Of a DNA stretch of 64,000 bases, positions 11,999-58,228 are shown one piece after another. The notes below the pieces were generated by a model, which saw only the letters and a program-made list of their open reading frames with translations, made no database searches and was not told the origin of the DNA. This DNA is from an uncultured Candidatus Saccharibacteria bacterium (GTDB taxonomy: Bacteria; Patescibacteriota; Minisyncoccia; Phycocordibacterales; UBA1550): the NCBI GenBank assembly GCA_964642305.1, contig CAZXOE010000005.1, positions 13,369-77,368 on the forward strand, read 5' to 3'. The stretch's first letter is position 1, and each line of letters opens with the position of its first letter. The position numbers and the translations under genes were made by a program.

Positions 11999-12060
11999 AC
12001 GAATTATTATACCCCCACACCTACTTTATTGATAGTCGAAAATTGGTGTGGGGGTATGCT
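11999..12060 (-). promoter_or_regulatory. Conserved upstream module: inverted repeat CCCCCACACC / GGTGTGGGGG plus TATAATAAT abutting the Fic ATG
   Basis: 25 nt ATTATTATACCCCCACACCTACTTT is identical to 45321-45345, which also abuts a start codon. Confidence 0.5.
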
Positions 12061-12089
12061 ACTTTCAAAAAAGGAAAGTAGGGGAAATC

Positions 12090-40911: not shown

Positions 40912-41047
40912 TATGGAGCCGATGTCCGGGGGCTCACTGCTCGCTCGCAGGCTCGCTTCGCTTTAGAAACCCACGGTTTCTAACTTTTTCCTCCACGGGA
41001 AACTCCCGTTTCCCGACCCCTTCCCAGGTTCAATCCCGGACATCGGC
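40912..41047 (-). other. tRNA-derived hairpin element of about 135 nt: 13 bp terminal stem copied from the tRNA-Thr T-arm and acceptor, internal GNRA-capped hairpins, 3' CCA
   Basis: Minus-strand 5' GCCGATGTCCGGG ... CCCGGACATCGGC-TCCA 3'. Internal CGGGAAAC-GGGA-GTTTCCCG and TTAGAAACC-GTG-GGTTTCTAA hairpins. Confidence 0.45.
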
Positions 41048-41087: not shown

Positions 41088-41094
41088 AGCCGAT

Positions 41095-41170
41095 GTCCGG
41101 GATTGAACCGGAGACCTCGTCCTTACCAAGGACGCACTCTACCAACTGAGCTACATCGGCTTATATTTTA
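41095..41170 (-). tRNA. tRNA-Thr (anticodon GGT), CCA encoded
   Basis: GCCGATGTAGCTCAGTTGGTAGAGTGCGTCCTTGGTAAGGACGAGGTCTCCGGTTCAATCCCGGACATCGGCTCCA. Confidence 0.85.
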
Positions 41171-41554
41171 TTCTCACAGTATAGACAGACGTAGTGTTCA
41201 TGCTTACCTACCAAAACAGCTACATCGGCTTACTATACACCACGACACGATACACTATTTAGCGCATTCTTTCAATCAAAATGATAGCAAAAAGGTCCGG
41301 ATTATCGGATCTTTTGCTACTCCGTCACTTTTATCAACTTTGAGTTACGAAACTCAGGTATTCCTCGTATCGTCTTTGCGAACGAAGTGAAGCAATCTAG
41401 AATTAAGCACGCTACACACTGGATCACTTCGTCAGAGTACCTCCTCGTGAGGACGGAAGAATCAGAGTTTCGTAATTCAAAGTTTATCAAAGCTAAACCT
41501 TGATAAAAGTTTAACAAACTTACGAGAAAGACTTCATTGGGGATAGTATTATTT

Positions 41555-41891
41555 ATTAGCGACGTAGACGAATCACCAGATTCGCGTCTTGGACGAAGAT
41601 AAAAAAGTAATCTTTTTCAGTACTGAGCCGAGGAGCTAATATATGGAGTACCATATAATGACGGCACTCGGACGTTGTGAAAGAGATTACTCATTCACAC
41701 GCTCCTCGTTTGTCATTATAGGTCAATACCGCGTGGTCTCAGCGTCCAAGACGTGAATTTGCTAATTCAGCCACGCTTTTGTACTCGACCTTTAGGTCAT
41801 TCTGGTGAATGAGAAGCGAATTCGAAGTATTTTAGGTCCAAGACCCGAATCTACTGATTCGCCTGCAGTCTCTGCCGCAGGGGCCTATATT
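41555..41891 (+). repeat. Copy A (long form, 337 bp) of a three-copy structured repeat family
   Basis: Shares blocks ATTAGCGACGTAG, GAGCCGAGGAGCTAATATA, GCGAATTCGAAGTATT and the terminal hairpin ...TCTCTGCCGCAGGGGCCTATATT with copies at 46840-46998 and 63598-63757. Confidence 0.8.
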
Positions 41892-41912
41892 CGTTGCCCG
41901 TTGCAGTGTTAG

Positions 41913-44840
41913 CTAGAACATTCGGTACTTTATTTTTACAGAACTTCTAGCGCTACACGATGCGGAGCCTGCACCACCAGAGCCAGAGCATGTCCACATC
42001 CATGTCCCCCCATTATCAGAAGGGGTGGAATTACCAGCTGTTGTCGTACAAAGATTTGCAGTCGGCACTGTTGGTGTAGGAGTACCATGAGCGCTACCGC
42101 AAACGCCAGTGATATAACTTAAATTATAAACACGACATAGTGCGTTTGACCCTGTTCCACTATTATTTATTGCCATGCAACCCCATTCATAATACTGAGA
42201 TGTACCTGCTCCCGTAACTGCTGTAGGGGTACCATAGGAGCATAAGTTTGACGTAGGAGCTGTAAAAGAAGGAGTGTCCTCCGCGCTTCCGCACACGCCA
42301 TTTCTAGCAGTGGTGAACGAAACTTCTAGAGAATACCCTGTGCCATGCGAATTTGTTGCGTATCCACGCACGTAATATGTTGTTCCCTGCTGTAGCCCTG
42401 TTACGTTTATTGAATATGCTCCAAGTGTTGCTGGAGGCGCAGGTGTACAAGTTGCGCCGTTTGTATGACTAGGATTATTCATTATCCCATAGCAAACACC
42501 ACGCGCAGAAATTGATGGTGGGGTACGCTTGTGTAAATAAATCTTATTTTTTGGTGAACCTCCCTGGTAATATATTGATTTGCCATCTGGAGAAATTTGC
42601 ATTCCAGAAGTGAAAGAAGCAGAAGCACGGTTGTGCTCATACACAGGAGAAGTGGTGTCTATGCTTCCATCTGCTATACCTCTACGAAAAACAAAGATTT
42701 TGTCGAGAGATAGAAGATCACCAAACCCAAACCCGTAAACAGAATTTCCATCTGGAGATATTTTTATATTATCTATATTTCTACCTAAATTATAACTAGT
42801 TCCACCAGAAAGCAATCCTGTTGTTGTGTCGCGTGAGAACCTAGCTACCGCATTATAAATATTACCACCAATGTTAAGATAATCAGGATCATAAAATGGA
42901 TACACATATTTATCATCTGGTGAAACATAGACTTCCATGCTTGTAGGACGAGGCGCATCGGGGTAAAACACGAAAGTCCTGCCAGAAATCGTGCCAGTAA
43001 TTTGATTTCTAATGAACCTCCAAATCCTACTTGGAGGAGCACCTGATTCGTAATTTGCAGTATACAACGATTTACCATCTGATGAAAATGCGATATCACG
43101 CGCATACGCGGCCATAGTTGAAATATCAATAGTATTGCTCTCATTAGACAATGAACCATCAGCTAAATTTCGTGTACGCAATCTAAGCTTTCCCATGCTA
43201 GAAGTATCAGCAGATGTATATAAATGACTCCCGTCTGGAGATACAATAACCTCATGCGCTACATCAGTTGTTACGTAGGCAATCCTATTTGATAGTGTCC
43301 CATTATTTATATTCCTATCATATTTAACGATATATCTGCCCGTACCACCGGCAATAGAACACCCCGCATACACGTTCTTTCCGTCTGGTGATATAGTGAT
43401 AGGATTATTTATACCAATCGTGCAATTTCCTATATCATAGTTGGAAACATAGGTAAGCTCACCAGATTCATTTCTGTTGTATAAATATATCCCAGCTCTC
43501 TGGTTTGTTACATCGCCAATTGTTACTACATAAAAATGCTTTCCATCTGGCGAAGTAGCATTTGCTTGCAAACTTTCGTTAGTTGTTGCCAATGGTACAG
43601 TATACTCAATATATGGTTCCACCAGCTCCCCGCTGTAAGCTCCAAACGAGGTAACCTCCGCGCCGAGTGTTGCCGTGGTGGCTTTAATATATGTGCTTGT
43701 TGCGTTTATTACTGTAGGCAAAAGAGAAGTCTCTATGACATTTATGCTCGTCCATTCTCCGCAGTTGTTGTCTTCGGCTGTTGCAGGAGATTCAGTAATG
43801 ACACCTCCGCCAGCTGAAGCTGTTTTATCAGCGCACGACCTCACATAATACATACCACCTTCAGTAAATGTGTATGTTGTTGAAGATGCCACAGCGCTTG
43901 TGCCCGCGCCTAGAGCTGGCATTGTTTTAGGAGCAAGGTCGGTAATCGTGCCAGTCGTACTAGTAGCCACCTGAAAGAAATTTGGGAAACTCCCCCCAGT
44001 TGCCCCTGTGCCACTATTTGTTATGGCTGAATAAAAAAGTGTCGGCGAGTCAGTGATTACATTCACAGGGTACGAGGAACCCGCCGTGAGGTCTATATTT
44101 GTGGCTACATAGATACCATTAAAGGTAATCATACCACCAGAAGAAAGAGTGAGAGTTTCTGTTGCAGGTGTTGCGTATCCTGCAACATTCCCCCATGTTA
44201 TTGTGTATGTTCCTGTTGGCTTTGAGGTTGAAGTTTGAGAAGTGCCAGAGCCTGTGATTGTTGCTGGGCCAGTGATGGTCCAAGAGGATGAGATGTTTGA
44301 GGAGACGGATACGGTGCCGGTAGGAGAAGCAACTGTGATAAGGATACTAGAACTTCCGTCAAATCTAGGACTTAAATCATTAACCAGGCAGTCTGGGTCC
44401 TCTGCAGGACACCGTGGGTCACCAGCCCTTTTATAGTAGCTATCTAAATTAATAACATATGCGCCTGGAGTCATTGGAGCAGTAAGTACACCTGAGTGAA
44501 CCAATGTAACAGGATTAGGATTATACGGATGAGATAGAATATCTTCCATATTTTCTAAGTATGCATAATTCCCTTGAAGGGTCACGTAAATAGAATAATA
44601 ATAAAGAAGCTCTATTGGAATAAGTGTAGATAATGAACTGGTAAGATAAATATTTTCTCCTGGAGAAAATATTGTTTTGTTTATATTAACAGTGTAACTA
44701 TTTACATTAGTACCAAGGTAAGGATCTGTGCCCCAATAGGTTACCGCACCCACATCCTCAACTGCTACAATAAAAAACAATAAGGTAAGAAAAGTTGTTA
44801 AAAAGAATGACTTTGTTGTTTTTGTTAGTAGATTCTTCAT
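41913..44840 (-). CDS. Giant secreted surface protein: signal peptide, Ig-like domain shared with the 50058..51221 protein, YVTN-type beta-propeller repeats, Cys-rich C-terminus
   Basis: 975 aa. SPDGK/SSDGK..Y repeats. About 60 aa (SSSWTITGPATITGSGTSQTSTSKPTGTYTITWG) is near-identical to the paralog. Confidence 0.7.
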   Translation of the reverse strand: MKNLLTKTTKSFFLTTFLTLLFFIVAVEDVGAVTYWGTDPYLGTNVNSYTVNINKTIFSPGENIYLTSSLSTLIPIELLYYYSIYVTLQGNYAYLENMEDILSHPYNPNPVTLVHSGVLTAPMTPGAYVINLDSYYKRAGDPRCPAEDPDCLVNDLSPRFDGSSSILITVASPTGTVSVSSNISSSWTITGPATITGSGTSQTSTSKPTGTYTITWGNVAGYATPATETLTLSSGGMITFNGIYVATNIDLTAGSSYPVNVITDSPTLFYSAITNSGTGATGGSFPNFFQVATSTTGTITDLAPKTMPALGAGTSAVASSTTYTFTEGGMYYVRSCADKTASAGGGVITESPATAEDNNCGEWTSINVIETSLLPTVINATSTYIKATTATLGAEVTSFGAYSGELVEPYIEYTVPLATTNESLQANATSPDGKHFYVVTIGDVTNQRAGIYLYNRNESGELTYVSNYDIGNCTIGINNPITISPDGKNVYAGCSIAGGTGRYIVKYDRNINNGTLSNRIAYVTTDVAHEVIVSPDGSHLYTSADTSSMGKLRLRTRNLADGSLSNESNTIDISTMAAYARDIAFSSDGKSLYTANYESGAPPSRIWRFIRNQITGTISGRTFVFYPDAPRPTSMEVYVSPDDKYVYPFYDPDYLNIGGNIYNAVARFSRDTTTGLLSGGTSYNLGRNIDNIKISPDGNSVYGFGFGDLLSLDKIFVFRRGIADGSIDTTSPVYEHNRASASFTSGMQISPDGKSIYYQGGSPKNKIYLHKRTPPSISARGVCYGIMNNPSHTNGATCTPAPPATLGAYSINVTGLQQGTTYYVRGYATNSHGTGYSLEVSFTTARNGVCGSAEDTPSFTAPTSNLCSYGTPTAVTGAGTSQYYEWGCMAINNSGTGSNALCRVYNLSYITGVCGSAHGTPTPTVPTANLCTTTAGNSTPSDNGGTWMWTCSGSGGAGSASCSARSSVKIKYRMF

Positions 44841-44843
44841 TTA

Positions 44844-45320
44844 TTATTTTCTTAATACGCTAATACTCACCTGTGACTTCGCTGAATCTACATCGGAGTC
44901 ATAACTAATGGTCACATTAATATCATTACTTTCTTTTGTGCCATAGATAGAGGAAAGTTTTTCACTCTCGTATTTATTAGAAATATTCCACTGTTGTTTT
45001 TCAAAAAAACCAGTGTAGAGTGCGTAATTTTCTTTAACTGTTTTTGTGGAAAGAAAAACGATAGTGAGTTGCTTTTGACCAACATAATTCAAGCTATAGC
45101 TTTGTTTTAAATTTACCCCTTCCTCAACAGGTATATCTGTTGGAAAATCATTTGGTGCTTTTGCACCAAAATCTGTTCTTTTTGGCACTATATTTGTTGC
45201 AACATCATTTGTAGCTACATTTTTATTTTTTTCACTCCAAGAATACAGCAACAATGTAGCAACTACCAGTATGGCAATCCCAGATATGACAAGCAAGATA
45301 TTTCTATAATTCATTAACAT
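44844..45320 (-). CDS. Small membrane-anchored protein, paralog of 51218..51670
   Basis: 158 aa with an N-terminal TM; about 60% identical to the 150 aa paralog; lies 3 bp upstream of the giant protein gene. Confidence 0.6.
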   Translation of the reverse strand: MLMNYRNILLVISGIAILVVATLLLYSWSEKNKNVATNDVATNIVPKRTDFGAKAPNDFPTDIPVEEGVNLKQSYSLNYVGQKQLTIVFLSTKTVKENYALYTGFFEKQQWNISNKYESEKLSSIYGTKESNDINVTISYDSDVDSAKSQVSISVLRK

Positions 45321-45440
45321 TATTATACCCCCACACCTACTTTTTGCCTACTAGAGTTATCCACAAAGATAAATATATAAATGCGAATATAGTTTGTGAC
45401 TACAAAATCAATATGTAAAAGTAGGTGTGGGGGTGTACCC
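45321..45440 (-). promoter_or_regulatory. Second copy of the conserved upstream module: 17 bp inverted repeat CCCCCACACCTACTTTT / AAAAGTAGGTGTGGGGG plus TATAATAAT abutting the ATG
   Basis: First 25 nt are identical to 11999-12023. Confidence 0.5.
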
Positions 45441-45533
45441 CTAGAACTATTTTTTATATAACCTAATAGGCAAACTGGCTGTGGATAACTATCTAGGGAA
45501 TGCGGGCTATACTGCTCATTTTGACCGCGCAAA

Positions 45534-45574
45534 TACAAAAGTCGCCCAACGCTGTAGCGTTGGGCGACTTTTGT
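45534..45574 (-). terminator. 18 bp-stem hairpin 3' of tRNA-Asp
   Basis: ACAAAAGTCGCCCAACGC-TGTA-GCGTTGGGCGACTTTTGT. Confidence 0.8.
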
Positions 45575-45579
45575 ATTTG

Positions 45580-45654
45580 CGCGGTCGACCGGACTTGAAC
45601 CGGCAACCTCTCGCGTGACAGGCGAGTGCTACTAACCAGTTGAGCTACGACCGC
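45580..45654 (-). tRNA. tRNA-Asp (anticodon GTC)
   Basis: Acceptor GCGGTCG/CGACCGC, anticodon loop CTGTCAC, T-loop TTCAAGT, discriminator G. Confidence 0.8.
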
Positions 45655-46334
45655 AAATTCTTAAATTTGCCATATTTTTCAAACACAGCCTTCTTCCTAT
45701 CAAGAAAAAGCTTGTTCTTTGTATGACTTCTATGATTATACATAAAATCATAGAATTTCAAAGAGTCTTTTGTGCCAAACTGCAGACGGTAGCAATTTTC
45801 CTTTGGCTGGAAAATCGACCCTCCTTCAATGCCATAAATATTGAGCCTTTTGCGTATACTTTCTAAAAATACTTTTGAACACGAGGTTAATGCCACTTGA
45901 ATGGCAAGGCCTTGAGTTTCCCTCTCTTTATGAGTCACCCCAACCCAAACATTTCCATCACCATCAAAGTATCCTCTGACGAAATCAGAAAAATATTTTT
46001 GAGGGATGATTGGAACGACCAGATTTTTTGTTTTTCGCTCAGAGAAGCCAAGCTCTCTCAAATCCTCACACATCTCAATACTTCCAATCTGTAAACGATA
46101 AAGCGTGCTTTCATTTCCCCGCATAACACGAGTACTAATTTTGTGTTCCGACTGGATAGCTTTACGTATTTGCTCAAGAAGCTTTTTGTCAGTTATTTGA
46201 ATGCACCAAAATTGTCCACCTCGCTTGTTAACAGTAATGTACCCGTCAGCTGCAAAAAAACCTAGCACGTATGACATTTCTGGTGTCCATTTTTTAAAAA
46301 AACCTTTGTTTACTTTTTTTAATACTGGCACCAA
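45645..46334 (-). CDS. LAGLIDADG homing endonuclease (two motifs), free-standing; its 3' end overlaps the tRNA-Asp 5' end by 10 nt
   Basis: LGFFAADGY and RGYFDGDGN motifs. Confidence 0.8.
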   Translation of the reverse strand: MVPVLKKVNKGFFKKWTPEMSYVLGFFAADGYITVNKRGGQFWCIQITDKKLLEQIRKAIQSEHKISTRVMRGNESTLYRLQIGSIEMCEDLRELGFSERKTKNLVVPIIPQKYFSDFVRGYFDGDGNVWVGVTHKERETQGLAIQVALTSCSKVFLESIRKRLNIYGIEGGSIFQPKENCYRLQFGTKDSLKFYDFMYNHRSHTKNKLFLDRKKAVFEKYGKFKNLRS

Positions 46335-46398
46335 GTTATTATATCACGTGACAGGAAAGTATACTAGCCAACAAATTTGCATGCAAATTTTTCTATGG

Positions 46399-46470
46399 TG
46401 CCGATGAGTGGAATCGAACCACTATTTAGGGCTTATGAGTCCCTCGTTCTAACCATTGAACTACACCGGC
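46399..46470 (-). tRNA. tRNA-Met (anticodon CAT; elongator type with G1-C72; a lysidine-modified Ile2 tRNA cannot be excluded)
   Basis: GCCGGTGTAGTTCAATGGTTAGAACGAGGGACTCATAAGCCCTAAATAGTGGTTCGATTCCACTCATCGGCA. Confidence 0.75.
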
Positions 46471-46474
46471 TTAA

Positions 46475-47311
46475 TTAATATTTCTTCTTTACGGCATCAA
46501 TTAGCCCAAGTATCTCATATTTAAGTCTTGAACTTCTTCTTACCTTTAGTGACAAAATACCATAATATGAATCATAATTCTCATAAATCTTTTTTTGATT
46601 CATTTTTAAGAACACCTGATTACCAAACTGTGACTCAGGTAACTGTAACAGAGAAGACCAATATTTGACAACTTTTTTTATTCTTGGGCGGTGAATATCA
46701 TTAATAAATATTCTTGGCATAAAATCTTCATCATTCAGCTGAAACACTTTTTTGAACCACTTTTTCATCACAAGGATGATTTCTGGGTCAGAATTAACAA
46801 TTGCAAGAGCACTTCTATCACTCTTTGTACCCTCGCCCCAATATAGGCCCCTACGGCAGAGACCGCAGGGTAATACTTCGAATTCGCTTCGCTCATACAA
46901 AAGCGTGGCAGAGACCACGCGGTATTGACCTATATTAGCTCCTCGGCTCGGTGCTGAAAAAGATTACTTTTCCAGCACTCTCGCTCTACGTCGCTAATAA
47001 AGACCAACTCCTAGCATCAGTAAGTCTCTTTCTGTCATACGTCCCACAGTTTCTAAGGATTTCTTTTTACTGGCGCTCACGATATCCTGCTTTTTCTTGC
47101 GATTCATTTCAGCACCTATCATCCTGCCTTTATGCCCTGCAAGGATGGAACTCTGTCTAAGTCTACTCGTCTGTTTCTGTGTTAACACAACGCCCTGACA
47201 CCAAATACTTGCGGTTCCTTTTGATACGCCAACATGCTTAGCAATCGATCCTATGCTCCATCCCATTCTTCTTAATTTTTGAGCCCTAATCCTTTCTATG
47301 AACTTAGCCAT
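46475..47311 (-). pseudogene. HTH plus single-motif LAGLIDADG endonuclease gene split by insertion of repeat copy B
   Basis: ORF 46994..47311 ends ...LLMLGVGLY*, with the stop supplied by the repeat. ORF 46475..46918 resumes ...GLYWGEGTKSDRSALAIVNSDPEII. Joined, this gives a LAGLIDADG-like motif LGVGLYWGEGTK. Confidence 0.6.
46840..46998 (-). repeat. Copy B (short form, 159 bp) of the structured repeat family, inserted within a gene
   Basis: The reverse complement aligns block by block with copy C. Confidence 0.8.
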
Positions 47312-47351
47312 ATATATAATAATATCAGCTGTTCTAAAATAAACAAGACAT

Positions 47352-47401
47352 GAATTAAAGAATAACAGGTGTCATTTTAGACACCTGTTATTCTTTAATT
47401 C
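47352..47401 (-). terminator. 22 bp-stem hairpin immediately 3' of tRNA-fMet
   Basis: GAATTAAAGAATAACAGGTGTC-ATTTTA-GACACCTGTTATTCTTTAATTC. Confidence 0.6.
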
Positions 47402-47402
47402 A

Positions 47403-47477
47403 TGGTTGCGGGGGCCCGAATCGAACGGGCGTCTTCAGGTTATGAGCCTGATGAGATACCGCTTCTCTACCCCGCTA
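47403..47477 (-). tRNA. Initiator tRNA-fMet (anticodon CAT), CCA encoded
   Basis: Acceptor and 3' end ...GGCCCCCGCAACCA and the overall sequence closely resemble E. coli tRNAfMet; unpaired 1:72. Confidence 0.8.
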
Positions 47478-47586
47478 TATCTCCTATATTTGAACTTGTA
47501 TTATACCAAATCTGCAGAATTTTGCAAGAGGTATGTACACGCCAAGGTTCCTGACTTTACAGACTTTCGACTTTTAACTTTACGAC

Positions 47587-48258
47587 TTACAAATACCCCA
47601 ACTCCTTAAACGCATTGCCAAACTTTGCGATTGTATCTCGCGCCATTTTTTTAGACAGATCCATTTCAATAGCTCCACCGTGGGCAATTTCATTCCTAAC
47701 CTTGTGCGCCTCCCACAGATCATCGTATGAAGCTATTTTCGTACGACTCATTGATTTTAATTTTTCTGCGACAGTTTCTCCTGTAAATCCTAGATCCTCA
47801 AGTATCTGATCCAAAATATCGTCCGCCTCCAAAATAGCGATTTTCCACTCCGCTGGGCTTTCTGAGTTTACATGGTCAAGCACTACCTGCCACTGGGAAA
47901 GCTTTTCCCTTGCAAGTGTCTCATCCAAATGAATGGGGCTATATTTTTCATGTATGACATGATGCACCTCCCATATCTTTAATGTTGCCCAAAAAGACCC
48001 TGCGAGAAACAAAACTCCTAGCACCGCGAGAGCGCTCTTTAAGGAAAAAATAAAATTTTGCATTGTCTCAAAAGGAACGTAGCCTAGTAGAAACGACAAA
48101 ATTGCTGATGGAGCTTCTCCGGATGAAATTGTGTCTGCTGTGAGCGGTGTAATATTGTTACCTACATAAATAAAAAGAGCAATACCAACAACGATAGAAA
48201 CATCGCGGAATAATGTGTCTGGGGTTGGTGCTGGTGCTGAAAGTTTTTTTTCTGCCAT
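47587..48258 (-). CDS. Hypothetical membrane protein (three TM) with a C-terminal soluble domain
   Basis: 223 aa ORF. Confidence 0.4.
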   Translation of the reverse strand: MAEKKLSAPAPTPDTLFRDVSIVVGIALFIYVGNNITPLTADTISSGEAPSAILSFLLGYVPFETMQNFIFSLKSALAVLGVLFLAGSFWATLKIWEVHHVIHEKYSPIHLDETLAREKLSQWQVVLDHVNSESPAEWKIAILEADDILDQILEDLGFTGETVAEKLKSMSRTKIASYDDLWEAHKVRNEIAHGGAIEMDLSKKMARDTIAKFGNAFKELGYL

Positions 48259-48261
48259 ATT

Positions 48262-49695
48262 TTAAATGATATTCAATTTTTGCGTATTCTCAAAATCCTT
48301 ACCAATCGCAAAAAGCTCATCCTCACCAAAGTTTGGAGCAATGAACTGGATACCAAGTGGAAGTTTTGAACCACCCTCTTCCACAAAACCAGACGGAATT
48401 GAAATGGCAGGAACTCCAGCAATATTCACAGGCACGGTAAAAATATCAGCGAGGTACATTTGAAGCGGGTCAGACGACTTTTCACCAATCTTGAATGCTG
48501 GTGTTGGAGTGGTAGGTGTTGCAATAATATCCACGCTTTCAAATGCTTTCTTTAGATCATTTTTAAGCATCTCTCGCACAGCGCATGCGCGACCATAATA
48601 TGAGTCGTAGTAGCCCGACGAAAGAACATATGTGCCGAGGAGAATTCTGCGACGAACTTCTCGTCCAAAACCCTCTCCGCGCGAACGCATATAATCATCT
48701 AGAAGGTTTGCTCCGTCTGCGTGGTGTCCATAACGCACACCATCAAAACGCGCGAGGTTTGAAGAAACTTCCGCGGGCATCAAAATATAATAAACAGAAA
48801 GTCCGTGAGCGAGGGATGGCAAAGAAATTTCTTTTACTTCGTAGCCCGCTTTTTTCATCTTCTCAATTGACTCTTCAAAGTTTTTTATCACGCGTGGGTC
48901 AACGCCTTTTGCGTGCACAAACTCGGTCGGTACACCGATTACTTTAGGTTTAGAAAAAGTCTTGCGCGGAAAATCATCTGGGTAGGATGTACTATCCATT
49001 GCATCATGCCCCTTAATACAATCAAAAATTATTTCTGCATCTTCTACTGTTTTCGCAAAGGGTCCTGCTTGGTCAAGAGAGCTCGCCATTGCAATTAGTC
49101 CAGAGCGTGACACACTGCCGTATGTAGGCTTCAACCCCACTACTCCGCAAAAGGATGCGGGCTGGCGAATAGAACCACCTGTGTCAGTACCAAGCGCGCC
49201 GAGGCACGCGCCTCCTGCAAGAGCTGACGCGGAGCCACCCGACGAACCTCCAGGTACACGAGTTTTGTCATGAGGATTTTTTGTAACTCCAAAAGCAGAG
49301 TTCTCTGTTGAGCCACCCATTGCAAACTCATCCATATTTGTGCGACCAATGAACACCGCTCCAGCTGAGCGAAGTTTTTTTGTCACAAATGCATCATAAG
49401 TCGCTGTATAATTCTCGAGCATCTTTGATGAAGCGCTCGCTATTTTGCCCTTGATCAAAATATTGTCCTTCATCGCGATTGGAATACCTGTCATCATTGT
49501 TGCAAGGCCATCATCTATCATTTTTTGTGCCACCTCTGCTTGAGCACGCACGTCATCAAAAATTTCTAGGTATGCATTTAGATCTTTTGTCTCCTCCGCG
49601 ACCTTCAGAACCGCCTCAGCAAGTTCAAGCACACTCATTTTTTTGCTTACGAGAAGCTCGTGCGCCTGCTTGATTGTAAGATTCTTAATATCCAT
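48262..49695 (-). CDS. gatA: Glu-tRNA(Gln)/Asp-tRNA(Asn) amidotransferase subunit A
   Basis: Amidase signature GGSSGGSASALAGG and the Ser-cisSer-Lys region. Confidence 0.9.
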   Translation of the reverse strand: MDIKNLTIKQAHELLVSKKMSVLELAEAVLKVAEETKDLNAYLEIFDDVRAQAEVAQKMIDDGLATMMTGIPIAMKDNILIKGKIASASSKMLENYTATYDAFVTKKLRSAGAVFIGRTNMDEFAMGGSTENSAFGVTKNPHDKTRVPGGSSGGSASALAGGACLGALGTDTGGSIRQPASFCGVVGLKPTYGSVSRSGLIAMASSLDQAGPFAKTVEDAEIIFDCIKGHDAMDSTSYPDDFPRKTFSKPKVIGVPTEFVHAKGVDPRVIKNFEESIEKMKKAGYEVKEISLPSLAHGLSVYYILMPAEVSSNLARFDGVRYGHHADGANLLDDYMRSRGEGFGREVRRRILLGTYVLSSGYYDSYYGRACAVREMLKNDLKKAFESVDIIATPTTPTPAFKIGEKSSDPLQMYLADIFTVPVNIAGVPAISIPSGFVEEGGSKLPLGIQFIAPNFGEDELFAIGKDFENTQKLNII

Positions 49696-56906: not shown

Positions 56907-57398
56907 GTCCGAACCGTCTATTGCGAAAGCTATATCCTCACCTACTGCATACGAGTAAGCTCTCGAGCTTCCTACACTGTCAACACACCAGGAATCTGGC
57001 TCGTTTGCAGGCGCAGGGCCATCTGATGATTTAAGCTGTACGGCAACCGCCCATGTGGTAGCAGTAGCAACACATCTGCTTAGTGATGCTCCACCAGCCT
57101 TTGTGTATGCCTCACTCACTCCTGAAAAGATCTTGGCGTCTGCAAAGATATTTCCTGACGACACTACTGTTGGACAGGTAGACGAAGCGTATTCATTCCC
57201 AGCAGATGCATACTCCTGACTATTGTCATCATACCAAATGCTTGCCATTCCGCGGAGGTTGGTTATGTTGGACTTGATTGCCGCGTCAGTAGCTTTTGTG
57301 CGAGCAGTATTAAGAGACCCCAAAACAACCGATGCGAGAATACCGATGATTGCAATTACGATGAGAATTTCTATTAATGTAAAACCTTTTTTATACAT
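56895..57398 (-). CDS. Type IV major pilin paralog 1; start set at the internal Met
   Basis: [25 protein letters not shown]. Confidence 0.8.
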   Translation of the reverse strand: MYKKGFTLIEILIVIAIIGILASVVLGSLNTARTKATDAAIKSNITNLRGMASIWYDDNSQEYASAGNEYASSTCPTVVSSGNIFADAKIFSGVSEAYTKAGGASLSRCVATATTWAVAVQLKSSDGPAPANEPDSWCVDSVGSSRAYSYAVGEDIAFAIDGSDACR

Positions 57399-57430
57399 TA
57401 TATGGATAATAACATAATCTTTATTTAAAC

Positions 57431-57466
57431 AAAACAAAACCCCGCAGAATTGCGGGGTTTTGTTTT
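57431..57466 (-). terminator. Hairpin terminator after pilin paralog 2
   Basis: AAAACAAAACCCCGCA-GAAT-TGCGGGGTTTTGTTTT. Confidence 0.8.
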
Positions 57467-57502
57467 ACTAAATTCAACGAACGCTAAATTACTGCTATGT
57501 TG

Positions 57503-58200: not shown

Positions 58201-58228
58201 GGTGTGGATAAGTTCACCCTCCTAACTT

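Follow-up and report, generated by a model that had tools for sequence, protein, structure and literature searches.

Homing endonucleases and introns at tRNA genes

The leading model for the origin of mobile group I introns is collaborative homing, in which an endonuclease gene and an intron share one site. Free-standing endonucleases are also encoded within the tRNA clusters of phages, where SegB of T4 and F-Tfl of T5, which are GIY-YIG or HNH enzymes, promote preferential inheritance of the tRNA region. The locus considered here lies in a 64-kb stretch of contig CAZXOE010000005.1 (the whole stretch is called the window) and is the tRNA operon (fMet, Met, Asp) of a genome of the Paceibacteria (candidate phyla radiation, CPR/Patescibacteria). 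As in T4 and T5, free-standing genes are interleaved with the tRNA genes: gene 1 encodes a two-domain LAGLIDADG protein between tRNA-Met and tRNA-Asp, and gene 2, which is broken, encodes a helix-turn-helix (HTH) protein between tRNA-fMet and tRNA-Met. The explanation towards which we lean, with modest confidence, is that two free-standing selfish nuclease-type genes have settled in this operon. All evidence presented is computational.

Collaborative homing, as the pairing of a free-standing endonuclease with an ORF-less intron (ORF, open reading frame) at a single site, is a concept developed for phages (PMC3984707, PMC2790892, PMC6083498). The Paceibacterial system resembles the phage cases in that the intron of relatives lies inside the predicted recognition site of the enzyme, and in that gene and linked allele would spread by co-conversion. 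It differs in being located on a cellular CPR chromosome, in having a tRNA rather than a protein-coding gene as its host, and in using a LAGLIDADG protein, whereas F-CphI has an Endo VII-type motif and mobE is an HNH enzyme. About half of the carriers of gene 1 are moreover intron-less and apparently use target-site variation instead; the window itself is one of these, and its target is a predicted one.

In CPR bacteria, LAGLIDADG genes are known inside rRNA introns (PMC11270868, PMC8172020, PMC11809585), and the enzymes concerned, such as I-ShaI, are reported, with few exceptions, to be intron-encoded and to have a single domain (Tsurumaki et al. 2024, PMC11270868). tRNA is mentioned nowhere in that study (0 occurrences), and group I introns in CPR tRNAs are mentioned in passing in another (PMC8172020). 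Gene 1 shares its superfamily and homing logic with these enzymes and with the archaeal I-Tsp061I and I-DmoI; I-ShaI-type enzymes come from the same phylum, and I-Tsp061I has the closest fold. It differs from the rRNA-intron enzymes in being two-domain, free-standing and flush against a tRNA gene. Bacterial tRNA group I introns, classically found in Leu, fMet, Ile and Arg tRNAs, have been catalogued by position, those of CPR tRNAs among them, and expanded to 21 types in a 2020 preprint, which also notes that introns are frequent in metagenome-derived genomes from unnamed phyla (Williams 2020, bioRxiv 10.1101/2020.01.27.920355). The introns of the relatives conform to that account in their anticodon-loop position, their U-1 and omega-G, and, for fMet, the 'fMet.2Ug' site; the survey describes no adjacent endonuclease gene, and the window is intron-less at these tRNAs. 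The open full-text literature on free-standing LAGLIDADG genes yielded organelle cases only, and no description of a tRNA-Asp-linked free-standing LAGLIDADG family, of a target mimic or of a link between gene and site state was found in literature outside subscription journals.

A two-domain LAGLIDADG gene abutting tRNA-Asp

The window was analysed by ORF scan and with ARAGORN, Pfam and Rfam, the last at gathering score over the whole window and at E<=10 over 44800-48300. Gene 1 occupies 46331-45645 on the minus strand and encodes 228 aa from a GTG codon at 46331, a start consistent with homology and with the ENA gene call; a TTG at 46334 is an alternative (229 aa, program-made ORF list). A preliminary description of this segment had reported that the last codons of the gene overlap the first 10 nt of tRNA-Asp, and the coordinates agree: the last 10 nt of gene 1 (45654-45645) are the first 10 nt of the tRNA, and the TAG stop codon (45647-45645) corresponds to its nt 8-10. 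The double LAGLIDADG motif described at the same time is likewise borne out, with Pfam matches to LAGLIDADG_3 (1.3e-14) and LAGLIDADG_1 (1.2e-6) and the motifs LGFFAADG and GYFDGDG, each ending in a conserved acidic residue. An AlphaFold2 (AF2) model (pLDDT 88.6, pTM 0.87) consists of two alpha-beta-beta-alpha-beta-beta-alpha repeats, and a Foldseek search of the PDB returned 127 matches at E<=0.001, led by the archaeal intron enzyme I-Tsp061I (7.5e-10) and followed by I-AniI and the I-OnuI family; the best 50 of the 127 all have the LAGLIDADG fold (endonucleases, engineered variants and the bI3 maturase). Gene 1 encodes an intact monomeric two-domain LAGLIDADG protein, and its product is predicted to be an active homing endonuclease.

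The preliminary description had allowed that a larger RNA gene, with an intron that had escaped notice, might enclose its LAGLIDADG ORFs. Some plausibility is lent to this by the relatives, in which group I introns come close to these genes, to within 35 nt at tRNA-Asp and ~120 nt at tRNA-fMet. The three tRNAs of the window are, however, complete and uninterrupted by both ARAGORN and Rfam, just as first described; no intron, rRNA or other large RNA was detected in the window at gathering score or in 44800-48300 at E<=10, where the output consisted of tRNAs and chance miRNA-like matches on hairpins, with no match to Intron_gpI, group II introns or rRNA. The ORFs of the relatives, furthermore, stand outside their introns, which at 203-254 nt contain no ORF. 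A missed host intron is extremely improbable, and gene 1 stands free between complete tRNAs.

Distribution and conservation of gene 1

Gene 1 has ~1,980 relatives in the protein database, the best 120 of which are 58-100% identical to it and ~225 aa long. Scanning one genome per species yielded 80 loci with orthologs (53-78% identity), all in Paceibacteria-type genomes. The order tRNA-Met / LAGLIDADG gene / tRNA-Asp, with the stop codon inside tRNA-Asp, is kept in nearly all of these species; the elongator tRNA-Met lies ~60 nt upstream of the ORF, which ends in the first bases of tRNA-Asp. The arrangement, first described as unusual, is shared rather than peculiar to one genome, with an ortholog in the same slot in 80 Paceibacteria species. 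Both catalytic Asp residues (in GFFAADG and GYFDGDG) are retained in at least 98% of 81 orthologs, and an internal stop was found in just one of the 81. A phage origin was considered and rejected on the relatives from viral contigs, which are no more than 37-40% identical and of which one in 80 lies near tRNAs.

Presence and absence were assessed in an independent sample of nine loci reached via gene 2, and so blind to gene 1. It is present in two of them (the window and L005) and absent from the other seven (L004, L209, L210, L007, L008, L213 and L214), in which tRNA-Met and tRNA-Asp are separated by 40-257 nt (40-60 nt in the empty sites of L008, L210, L213 and L214) and in whose spacers tblastn detected no gene-1 remnants. 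Of all relatives found, L004 is one of the two closest; at 88% GatA identity to the window, it stands marginally nearer than the closest carrier measured, L010 (86%). The absence of gene 1 from seven of nine sampled relatives, L004 included, implies that it is dispensable. A patchy, dispensable gene with conserved catalytic residues and one fixed insertion site resembles what a homing endonuclease gene looks like.

Group I introns in the tRNA genes of relatives

ARAGORN missed tRNA-Asp in 45 of the 80 gene-1 loci. The 5' half of the tRNA is found directly at the end of the ORF, broken after CCTGT by a sequence with a group I core, and with an nhmmer profile built from the first mapped cases, intron-bearing tRNA-Asp genes were recognized in 43/80 carriers (42 full-length and one cut by a contig end). 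The insertion site, CUGU|CAC, falls between anticodon nt 35 and 36. The 42 mapped introns are 203-254 nt long (median 220), all have U-1 and omega-G, and their removal restores a normal tRNA-Asp. The Rfam model Intron_gpI reached gathering score in L012 and L079; of eight others, six gave 38-49.6 bits (E 1e-9 to 4e-6). In 14/80 loci the tRNA-fMet gene is interrupted as well, by a group I intron whose site, CU|CAUAA, is the classical 'fMet.2Ug' position. Both kinds of intron are ORF-less. All seven sampled non-carriers of gene 1 lack the tRNA-Asp intron. The intron-containing tRNA that had been suggested as the endonuclease target thus exists in relatives, for both tRNA-Asp and tRNA-fMet, and is not found in the window itself. 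A weak third match to the profile of the tRNA-Asp intron, ~2 kb downstream of the nuclease gene in L030 (L030:6870-7115), could be another intron-bearing tRNA of the same array.

The proximity of gene and intron raises the question of whether gene 1 encodes a maturase that helps the tRNA-Asp intron to fold and splice, comparable to I-AniI or the bI3 maturase of yeast but encoded beside its intron. In 43 of 80 species the intron insertion site is found 35 nt downstream of the gene, the intron is missing from every sampled non-carrier, and both of these proteins rank among the nearest in structure and sequence. At ~220 nt, however, tRNA group I introns without an ORF normally self-splice. Further, the window and 36 other carriers are intron-less yet keep an intact and conserved ORF, gene-1 conservation is nearly equal in intron-plus and intron-minus genomes (0.595 vs 0.563), and the catalytic residues are retained. 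A maturase role is quite improbable on this balance.

A predicted target in tRNA-Asp and its upstream mimic

The recognition site of gene 1 is predicted to lie in the tRNA-Asp gene, as roughly TGGTTAG-N9-CTGTCACG, 24 bp from D-loop to anticodon loop. Three independent observations point to tRNA-Asp as the target: a mimic of this sequence upstream of gene 1, the position of the intron in relatives, and the way in which the state of the site tracks the presence of the gene.

The mimic first came to light in a repeat search, which matched 46344-46360, just upstream of the ORF, to the tRNA-Asp anticodon arm. The 35 nt preceding the gene-1 start are the best conserved non-coding sequence of the locus across the family, with the consensus TTGGTTAG-TATAATGTC-CTGTCAC-GTGATATAAT-N6-7-(A/G)TGCC. 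CTGTCAC is exact in 60/80 loci and has at most one mismatch in 71/80, at a fixed distance from the start, and a loose form of the whole motif is present in 54/80. Its two conserved blocks match tRNA-Asp, one the D-loop (TGGTTAG) and the other the anticodon loop (CCTGTCACG), and stand 9 nt apart as they do in the tRNA; an A/T-rich centre including TATAAT takes the place of the GC-rich stems (N9 is 72% A+T). The corresponding block of the window, TTGGCTAG-TATACTTTC-CTGTCAC-GTGA-TATAAT (46338-46371, minus strand), is promoter- or operator-like and mimics tRNA-Asp nt 16-39. A second TATAAT lies 6-7 nt before the gene-1 start codon, at 6 nt in the window, which would suggest a leaderless mRNA. The endonuclease I-TevI represses its own gene by binding a homing-site-like operator without cutting it. 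Gene 1 is similar in that a homing-site-like sequence overlaps its own promoter, and differs in that I-TevI is a GIY-YIG, intron-encoded phage enzyme and operator binding is here a candidate function: the A/T-centred mimic, which would not be cleavable, may be an operator for gene-1 autorepression.

The intron of the relatives splits the right-hand block of the predicted site (CTGT|CACG), and an intron at this position would protect carriers. The strict site TGGTTAG-N9-CTGTCACG is uninterrupted in tRNA-Asp of all seven sampled non-carriers; three of 36 intron-less carriers have it intact, and the intron interrupts it in the 42-43 others (Fisher p=2e-8 for site state against gene presence, without phylogenetic correction). 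Intron-less carriers show several different D-arm changes, scattered over the tree. The tRNA-Asp of the window has an unusual extra D-arm nucleotide (GGTTAGTAGC), shared with L009 and four other intron-less carriers, through which the spacing from TGGTTAG to CTGTCACG becomes 10 instead of 9. Immunity via the anticodon stem was considered and is not supported: the anticodon arm of the window is identical to the spliced exons of six intron-bearing species, and the difference sits in the D-arm.

A homing endonuclease could also have its target at the spacer junction of tRNA-Met and tRNA-Asp, as in classical intron-less homing into an empty site; intron and D-arm variants would then be unrelated or co-converted, and the upstream motif would be a promoter. 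LAGLIDADG genes typically insert at their cleavage site, gene 1 is always found in exactly this spacer, flush with the 5' end of tRNA-Asp, and empty sites with short spacers exist. The spacer sequences upstream of tRNA-Asp are, however, unconserved between species and would make a poor long-lived target. Such a target would also leave unexplained both the conserved CTGTCAC at a tRNA-like distance from TGGTTAG and the contrast in intact sites between non-carriers and intron-less carriers. A spacer target is accordingly improbable, if a little less so than a maturase.

The tRNA-Asp sequences of the relatives hold several further features. Apart from the 1-nt D-arm insertion and one compensated anticodon-stem pair, the tRNA-Asp of the window equals the spliced tRNA-Asp of L012 and L013, whose GatA proteins are just 61-64% identical to that of the window; compared with the much closer relative L004, it has many T-arm differences. 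This likeness could result from gene conversion together with the nuclease gene or from the limited sequence space of tRNAs. Pseudo-tRNA-Asp units also occur: the non-carrier L004 has two tandem units of ~107 nt (L004:4763-5019), each starting with the first 17 nt of tRNA-Asp and with D-loop and anticodon loop replaced, and L047 has one unit (L047:1466-1557) between the end of the gene-1 ORF and the real tRNA. In L035, L060 and L076, tRNA-Asp nt 1-12 are duplicated after the nuclease ORF around a 35-75-nt insert beginning GTTTTGG. These units and duplications may be scars of repeated cleavage and repair, or of nuclease-gene loss. Finally, a conserved and apparently structured element of ~130 nt (GGGGTCGAAAAGGTTGAG ... 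GAAACCTGTAC ... GATCCCCACC.CGACAC) is found in the spacer between tRNA-Met and tRNA-Asp, at L007:3524-3706, ~100-250 nt upstream of the nuclease ORF in L013 and L015, and in L016, L045 and L062; it matches no Rfam family at gathering score and may be an undescribed small RNA or another mobile element.

Proposed mode of spread and its difficulties

The interpretation that we regard as somewhat probable is that gene 1 encodes a free-standing homing endonuclease aimed at tRNA-Asp, in a manner resembling the collaborative homing of phages. The enzyme would cut TGGTTAG-N9-CTGTCACG in the tRNA-Asp of genomes without gene 1, and the break would be repaired from the copy of a carrier, with the conserved tRNA-Met and tRNA-Asp sequences as homology arms. 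Gene 1 would be copied in together with a linked resistant tRNA-Asp allele, intron-bearing in some lineages and D-arm-variant in others. The window would be protected by the second route, its 1-nt insertion shifting the half-sites from N9 to N10. The enzyme would repress its own synthesis through the mimic overlapping its promoter. Because the ORF runs into the 5' end of tRNA-Asp, a separate tRNA promoter would not fit there, and transcription of tRNA-Asp probably proceeds through the nuclease gene. A more far-reaching interpretation, which we hold tentatively and consider doubtful in its full extent, is that of chromosomal collaborative homing on an essential tRNA in cellular organisms, in which a long-lived family targets tRNA-Asp, forces protection and represses itself, with gene 2 and the tRNA-fMet intron behaving likewise.

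Several points weigh against a selfish nuclease of this kind. Three carriers retain the intact strict site, and a looser form, GGT(T)AG-N9, is present in 10/36 intron-less carriers; the non-carriers sampled are few (seven), all of them from loci reached through gene 2. Since the window shares its anticodon arm with intron-bearing species, any immunity must rest on the single D-arm insertion. The operator does not co-vary with the form of the D-loop of its own species, and the upstream blocks could instead be the -35/-10 elements of a promoter. Cleavage by gene 1, its target site and operator binding are each inferred from sequence. Gene 1 is also as strongly conserved as the essential GatA (mean pairwise identity 0.580 vs 0.578 over 53 genomes), and the LAGLIDADG and GatA trees agree in their shallow clusters, so that gene 1 partly follows host relatedness. 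Such durability is unusual for a selfish gene, which is expected to decay after fixation, and a host-useful function fits it equally well.

The durability of gene 1 could also be that of a domesticated LAGLIDADG protein, no longer selfish and kept for the host, for example a sequence-specific DNA-binding regulator of the tRNA-Met/tRNA-Asp unit, like the LAGLIDADG-derived WhiA, or a nuclease with another role; the upstream mimic would then be its regulatory operator. The parity with GatA in identity and shallow tree structure, the single interrupted copy among the 81, the conserved operator-like motif overlapping the promoter and the ORF overlap that deprives tRNA-Asp of its own promoter would all be consistent with domestication. 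This alternative is unlikely, though the least unlikely of those considered. Gene 1 is absent from most of the independently sampled relatives, L004 included, and is therefore dispensable; WhiA and pure maturases generally lose their catalytic Asp residues, both of which gene 1 keeps in nearly every copy; and the tracking of gene presence by the state of the tRNA-Asp site would not be predicted of a mere regulator.

The HTH gene between tRNA-fMet and tRNA-Met

Gene 2 spans 47311-46475 on the minus strand as two ORFs in the same frame, 47311-46994 (105 aa, with the HTH) and 46918-46475 (147 aa). The preliminary description had called this second gene disrupted, and comparison with an intact 226-aa ortholog in L004 (78% identity), which also lies between tRNA-fMet and tRNA-Met, bears this out: the alignment reveals a clean 156-nt insertion (46840-46995) with two in-frame stops (TAG and TAA). 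The N-terminal part, consisting of the HTH and a long helix up to ...LLMLGVGLY, occupies 46996-47311 (minus strand), and its reading now ends at a TAG (46996-46994) made by the insertion. The C-terminal part (46475-46839, minus strand) runs from WGEGTK... to a stop codon 4 nt before tRNA-Met. The insertion separates Y from W in the invariant LYWGEG motif.

The rejoined protein of 226 aa has 122 database relatives, with full-length homologs at 84-40% identity, and its AF2 model has a pLDDT of 92.9. Its N-terminus is an HTH, matched by Pfam HTH_23 and other families in 50 of 54 members, and the motif LLxxGxxLYWGEGxK, with invariant E108 and G109, lies at the end of a predicted helix (94-108). 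The earlier designation of gene 2 as an HTH-LAGLIDADG gene holds for its first half. For the second, the evidence consists of LYWGEG and a marginal match of the family profile to the second domain of I-DmoI (E 0.019-0.03). Pfam assigned HTH families and no LAGLIDADG family to the 54 members, hhalign gave a probability of 1.5% for the gene-2 family against the gene-1 family, and Foldseek returned nothing at E<=0.001 in the PDB (I-DmoI at rank 38, E 0.43) and nothing in BFVD. The predicted order of elements, alpha-beta-alpha-beta-alpha-beta-beta-alpha, is unlike the canonical LAGLIDADG fold. The LAGLIDADG identity and nuclease nature of gene 2 are unproven.

In every locus examined, members of the gene-2 family lie between two tRNA genes. 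A 32%-identical member on a 360-kb groundwater contig (L212:3001-3702) is situated between tRNA-Glu(TTC) and tRNA-Val(GAC), by which the association of the family with tRNA arrays extends beyond the fMet/Met pair. A gene-2 homolog stands beside, and divergent from, the tRNA-fMet gene in eight of the 14 loci where this tRNA bears an intron, compared with one or two of the 66 where it does not. Copies in L005, L007 and L008 are frameshifted or truncated, and decay in several copies is as expected of a selfish gene. Gene 2 of the window is a pseudogene of a tRNA-array-dwelling HTH protein.

A miniature mobile element in gene 2

The 156-nt insert (AGCGACGTAGAGCGAG...GGGGCCTATATT; 46840-46995, minus strand, with bounds taken from L004) is located after TTTATT within LYWGEG and folds strongly (z -4.9). 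Related sequences occur on six metagenome contigs (L155, L098, L104, L193, L116 and L107), with 73-82% identity over the 3' 100 nt and a nearly identical 5' end in four; these were retained after BLAST filtering, since the pattern GGTCTCTGCC-N27-57-GGTCTCTGCC, which describes two identical hairpin loops, gives mostly chance matches in metagenomes. Both ends could be mapped in four copies (L098, L107, L155 and L193; 160-224 nt), the two others being partial matches, and none of the six lies inside a gene-2 homolog. The copies share the ends (T)TTATT|AGCGACGTAGAGCGAG ... GGGGCCTATATT|, have unrelated flanks, range in size from 156 to 224 nt, and contain a variable internal hairpin and two conserved hairpins with compensatory substitutions. 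In the window as in the four mapped copies, the element directly follows (T)TTATT, has TATATT as its final bases and leaves the flanks unduplicated.

By these properties the insert is a miniature non-autonomous mobile element with IS200/IS605-like behaviour. It resembles the miniature elements derived from IS200/IS605 (PATEs) in its insertion 3' of a fixed TTATT without target duplication, in a right end that finishes with a similar sequence (TATATT), in its structured subterminal hairpins with compensatory changes, and in occurring as multiple non-autonomous copies of 156-224 nt in unrelated contexts; its assignment to this class is by behaviour only. No autonomous copy with TnpA or TnpB was seen among the loci examined, no dedicated search for one having been made.

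A tiny intron or a programmed translational bypass of the T4 gene 60 kind was also considered, as the insert is in frame and strongly folded and its 5' and 3' junctions, reading UAU-UAG and UAU, resemble matched codons followed by a stop. Both were rejected on the existence of same-ended copies in unrelated non-coding contexts. The two 'GLY' copies at the junctions differ only synonymously, and the bypass 'landing' sequence GGCCTATATT is the conserved 3' end of the mobile element, present elsewhere in non-coding contexts; the apparent duplication of the GLY codons is explained by this end. No choice of boundaries provides the omega-G of a group I intron, save one that is superseded by the mobile-element evidence.

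tRNA genes, hairpins and neighbouring features

The three tRNA genes are all on the minus strand and were identified by ARAGORN and Rfam: tRNA-Asp(GTC) at 45579-45654 (intron-less), elongator tRNA-Met(CAT) at 46396-46470 and tRNA-fMet(CAT) at 47403-47476. The last is intron-less, encodes its CCA and starts with C opposite A, the C1xA72 mismatch of bacterial initiators. It is preceded by a sigma-70-like, TG-extended promoter (TTGCAA-16-TATAAT; 47500-47527, minus strand), assigned by consensus match only (10/12).

The preliminary description had each tRNA followed by a long perfect hairpin with a stem of 18-22 bp, which does not hold. A perfect terminator-like hairpin of 31 bp follows tRNA-Asp (45523-45586, minus strand; dG -61 kcal/mol, z -12.2), its stem overlapping the last 8 nt of the tRNA, and one of 25 bp with a T-rich tail follows tRNA-fMet (47349-47404, minus strand; dG -40.3, z -14.4), with a stem sequence kept in L004. 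tRNA-Met has no long hairpin; the 7-9-bp A/T palindrome there folds no better than shuffled sequences (z +1.4). A role of the hairpins as tRNA-specific signals can be dismissed because long perfect hairpins of comparable length are found in many other intergenic regions of the window. They are ordinary terminator-like structures of the genome, outside the nuclease/tRNA system.

Nearly all genes of the window are on one strand, GC content is ~42%, and close protein relatives are all Patescibacteria, mostly Paceibacteria (Yonath-, Vogel-, Nomura- and Kaiserbacteria). Two genes, encoding a 158-aa protein and a secreted-looking repeat protein of 975 aa, lie between tRNA-Asp and two tRNA-Thr genes (41161-45578). 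tRNA-Asp and tRNA-Thr genes are tens to a few hundred nt apart in L004, L209, L210 and L008 (at most ~720 nt, in L004), which implies that the tRNA array of the window genome has been split by an insertion of ~4.4 kb. The 3' part of tRNA-Thr(GGT) has a 26-nt inverted copy (92%) 41 nt downstream (41022-41047 vs 41089-41114); an integration may have left it behind, or it may form a long hairpin together with tRNA-Thr.

Perfect DnaA-box nonamers (TTATCCACA) occur at 45357-45365 (plus strand), 45480-45488 (minus) and 58203-58211 (minus), against 0.64 expected by chance, and four of 100 shuffles reach three. The first two are 115 nt apart, intergenic and just downstream of tRNA-Asp; the window contains no GC-skew switch, and the region is therefore probably not a replication origin. 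Sequences like TGTGGATAAG are found upstream of the nuclease gene in L021 and L025. The 14-mer ACCCCCACACCTAC has three copies in the window (0 expected), at 45324-45437 and 12002-12064, which form inverted repeats of 21-26 nt directly upstream of two minus-strand genes (158 aa, 45320; 200 aa, 11998), each followed by TATAAT; they could represent a regulatory site common to both genes or else a small repeat. A match to Rfam isrJ, a Salmonella Hfq-binding small RNA (57390-57461, plus strand; 38.1 vs a gathering score of 37), falls on a hairpin of terminator type (57420-57477); in a CPR genome it is almost certainly spurious.

Implications

The annotation of the window is corrected to one intact gene for a predicted homing endonuclease, a gene-2 pseudogene interrupted by a miniature mobile element, and three tRNA genes of ordinary type. 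The compact LAGLIDADG scaffold of 228 aa, with its predicted 24-bp target and candidate natural operator, may also be of use as a tool. The examples of collaborative homing that were found cited come from phages. Here, dozens of cellular genomes seem frozen at different stages at one tRNA locus, namely an empty site, a nuclease with a variant target, and a nuclease with an intron, and these would constitute a natural comparative series for testing the model. If the proposed reading is true, it would help to explain why standard finders often miss tRNA-Asp and tRNA-fMet in CPR genomes, it would also explain why some of these genomes have odd D-arms, and a selfish nuclease would be the force behind both the retention of introns and the unusual tRNA structures of these minimal genomes.

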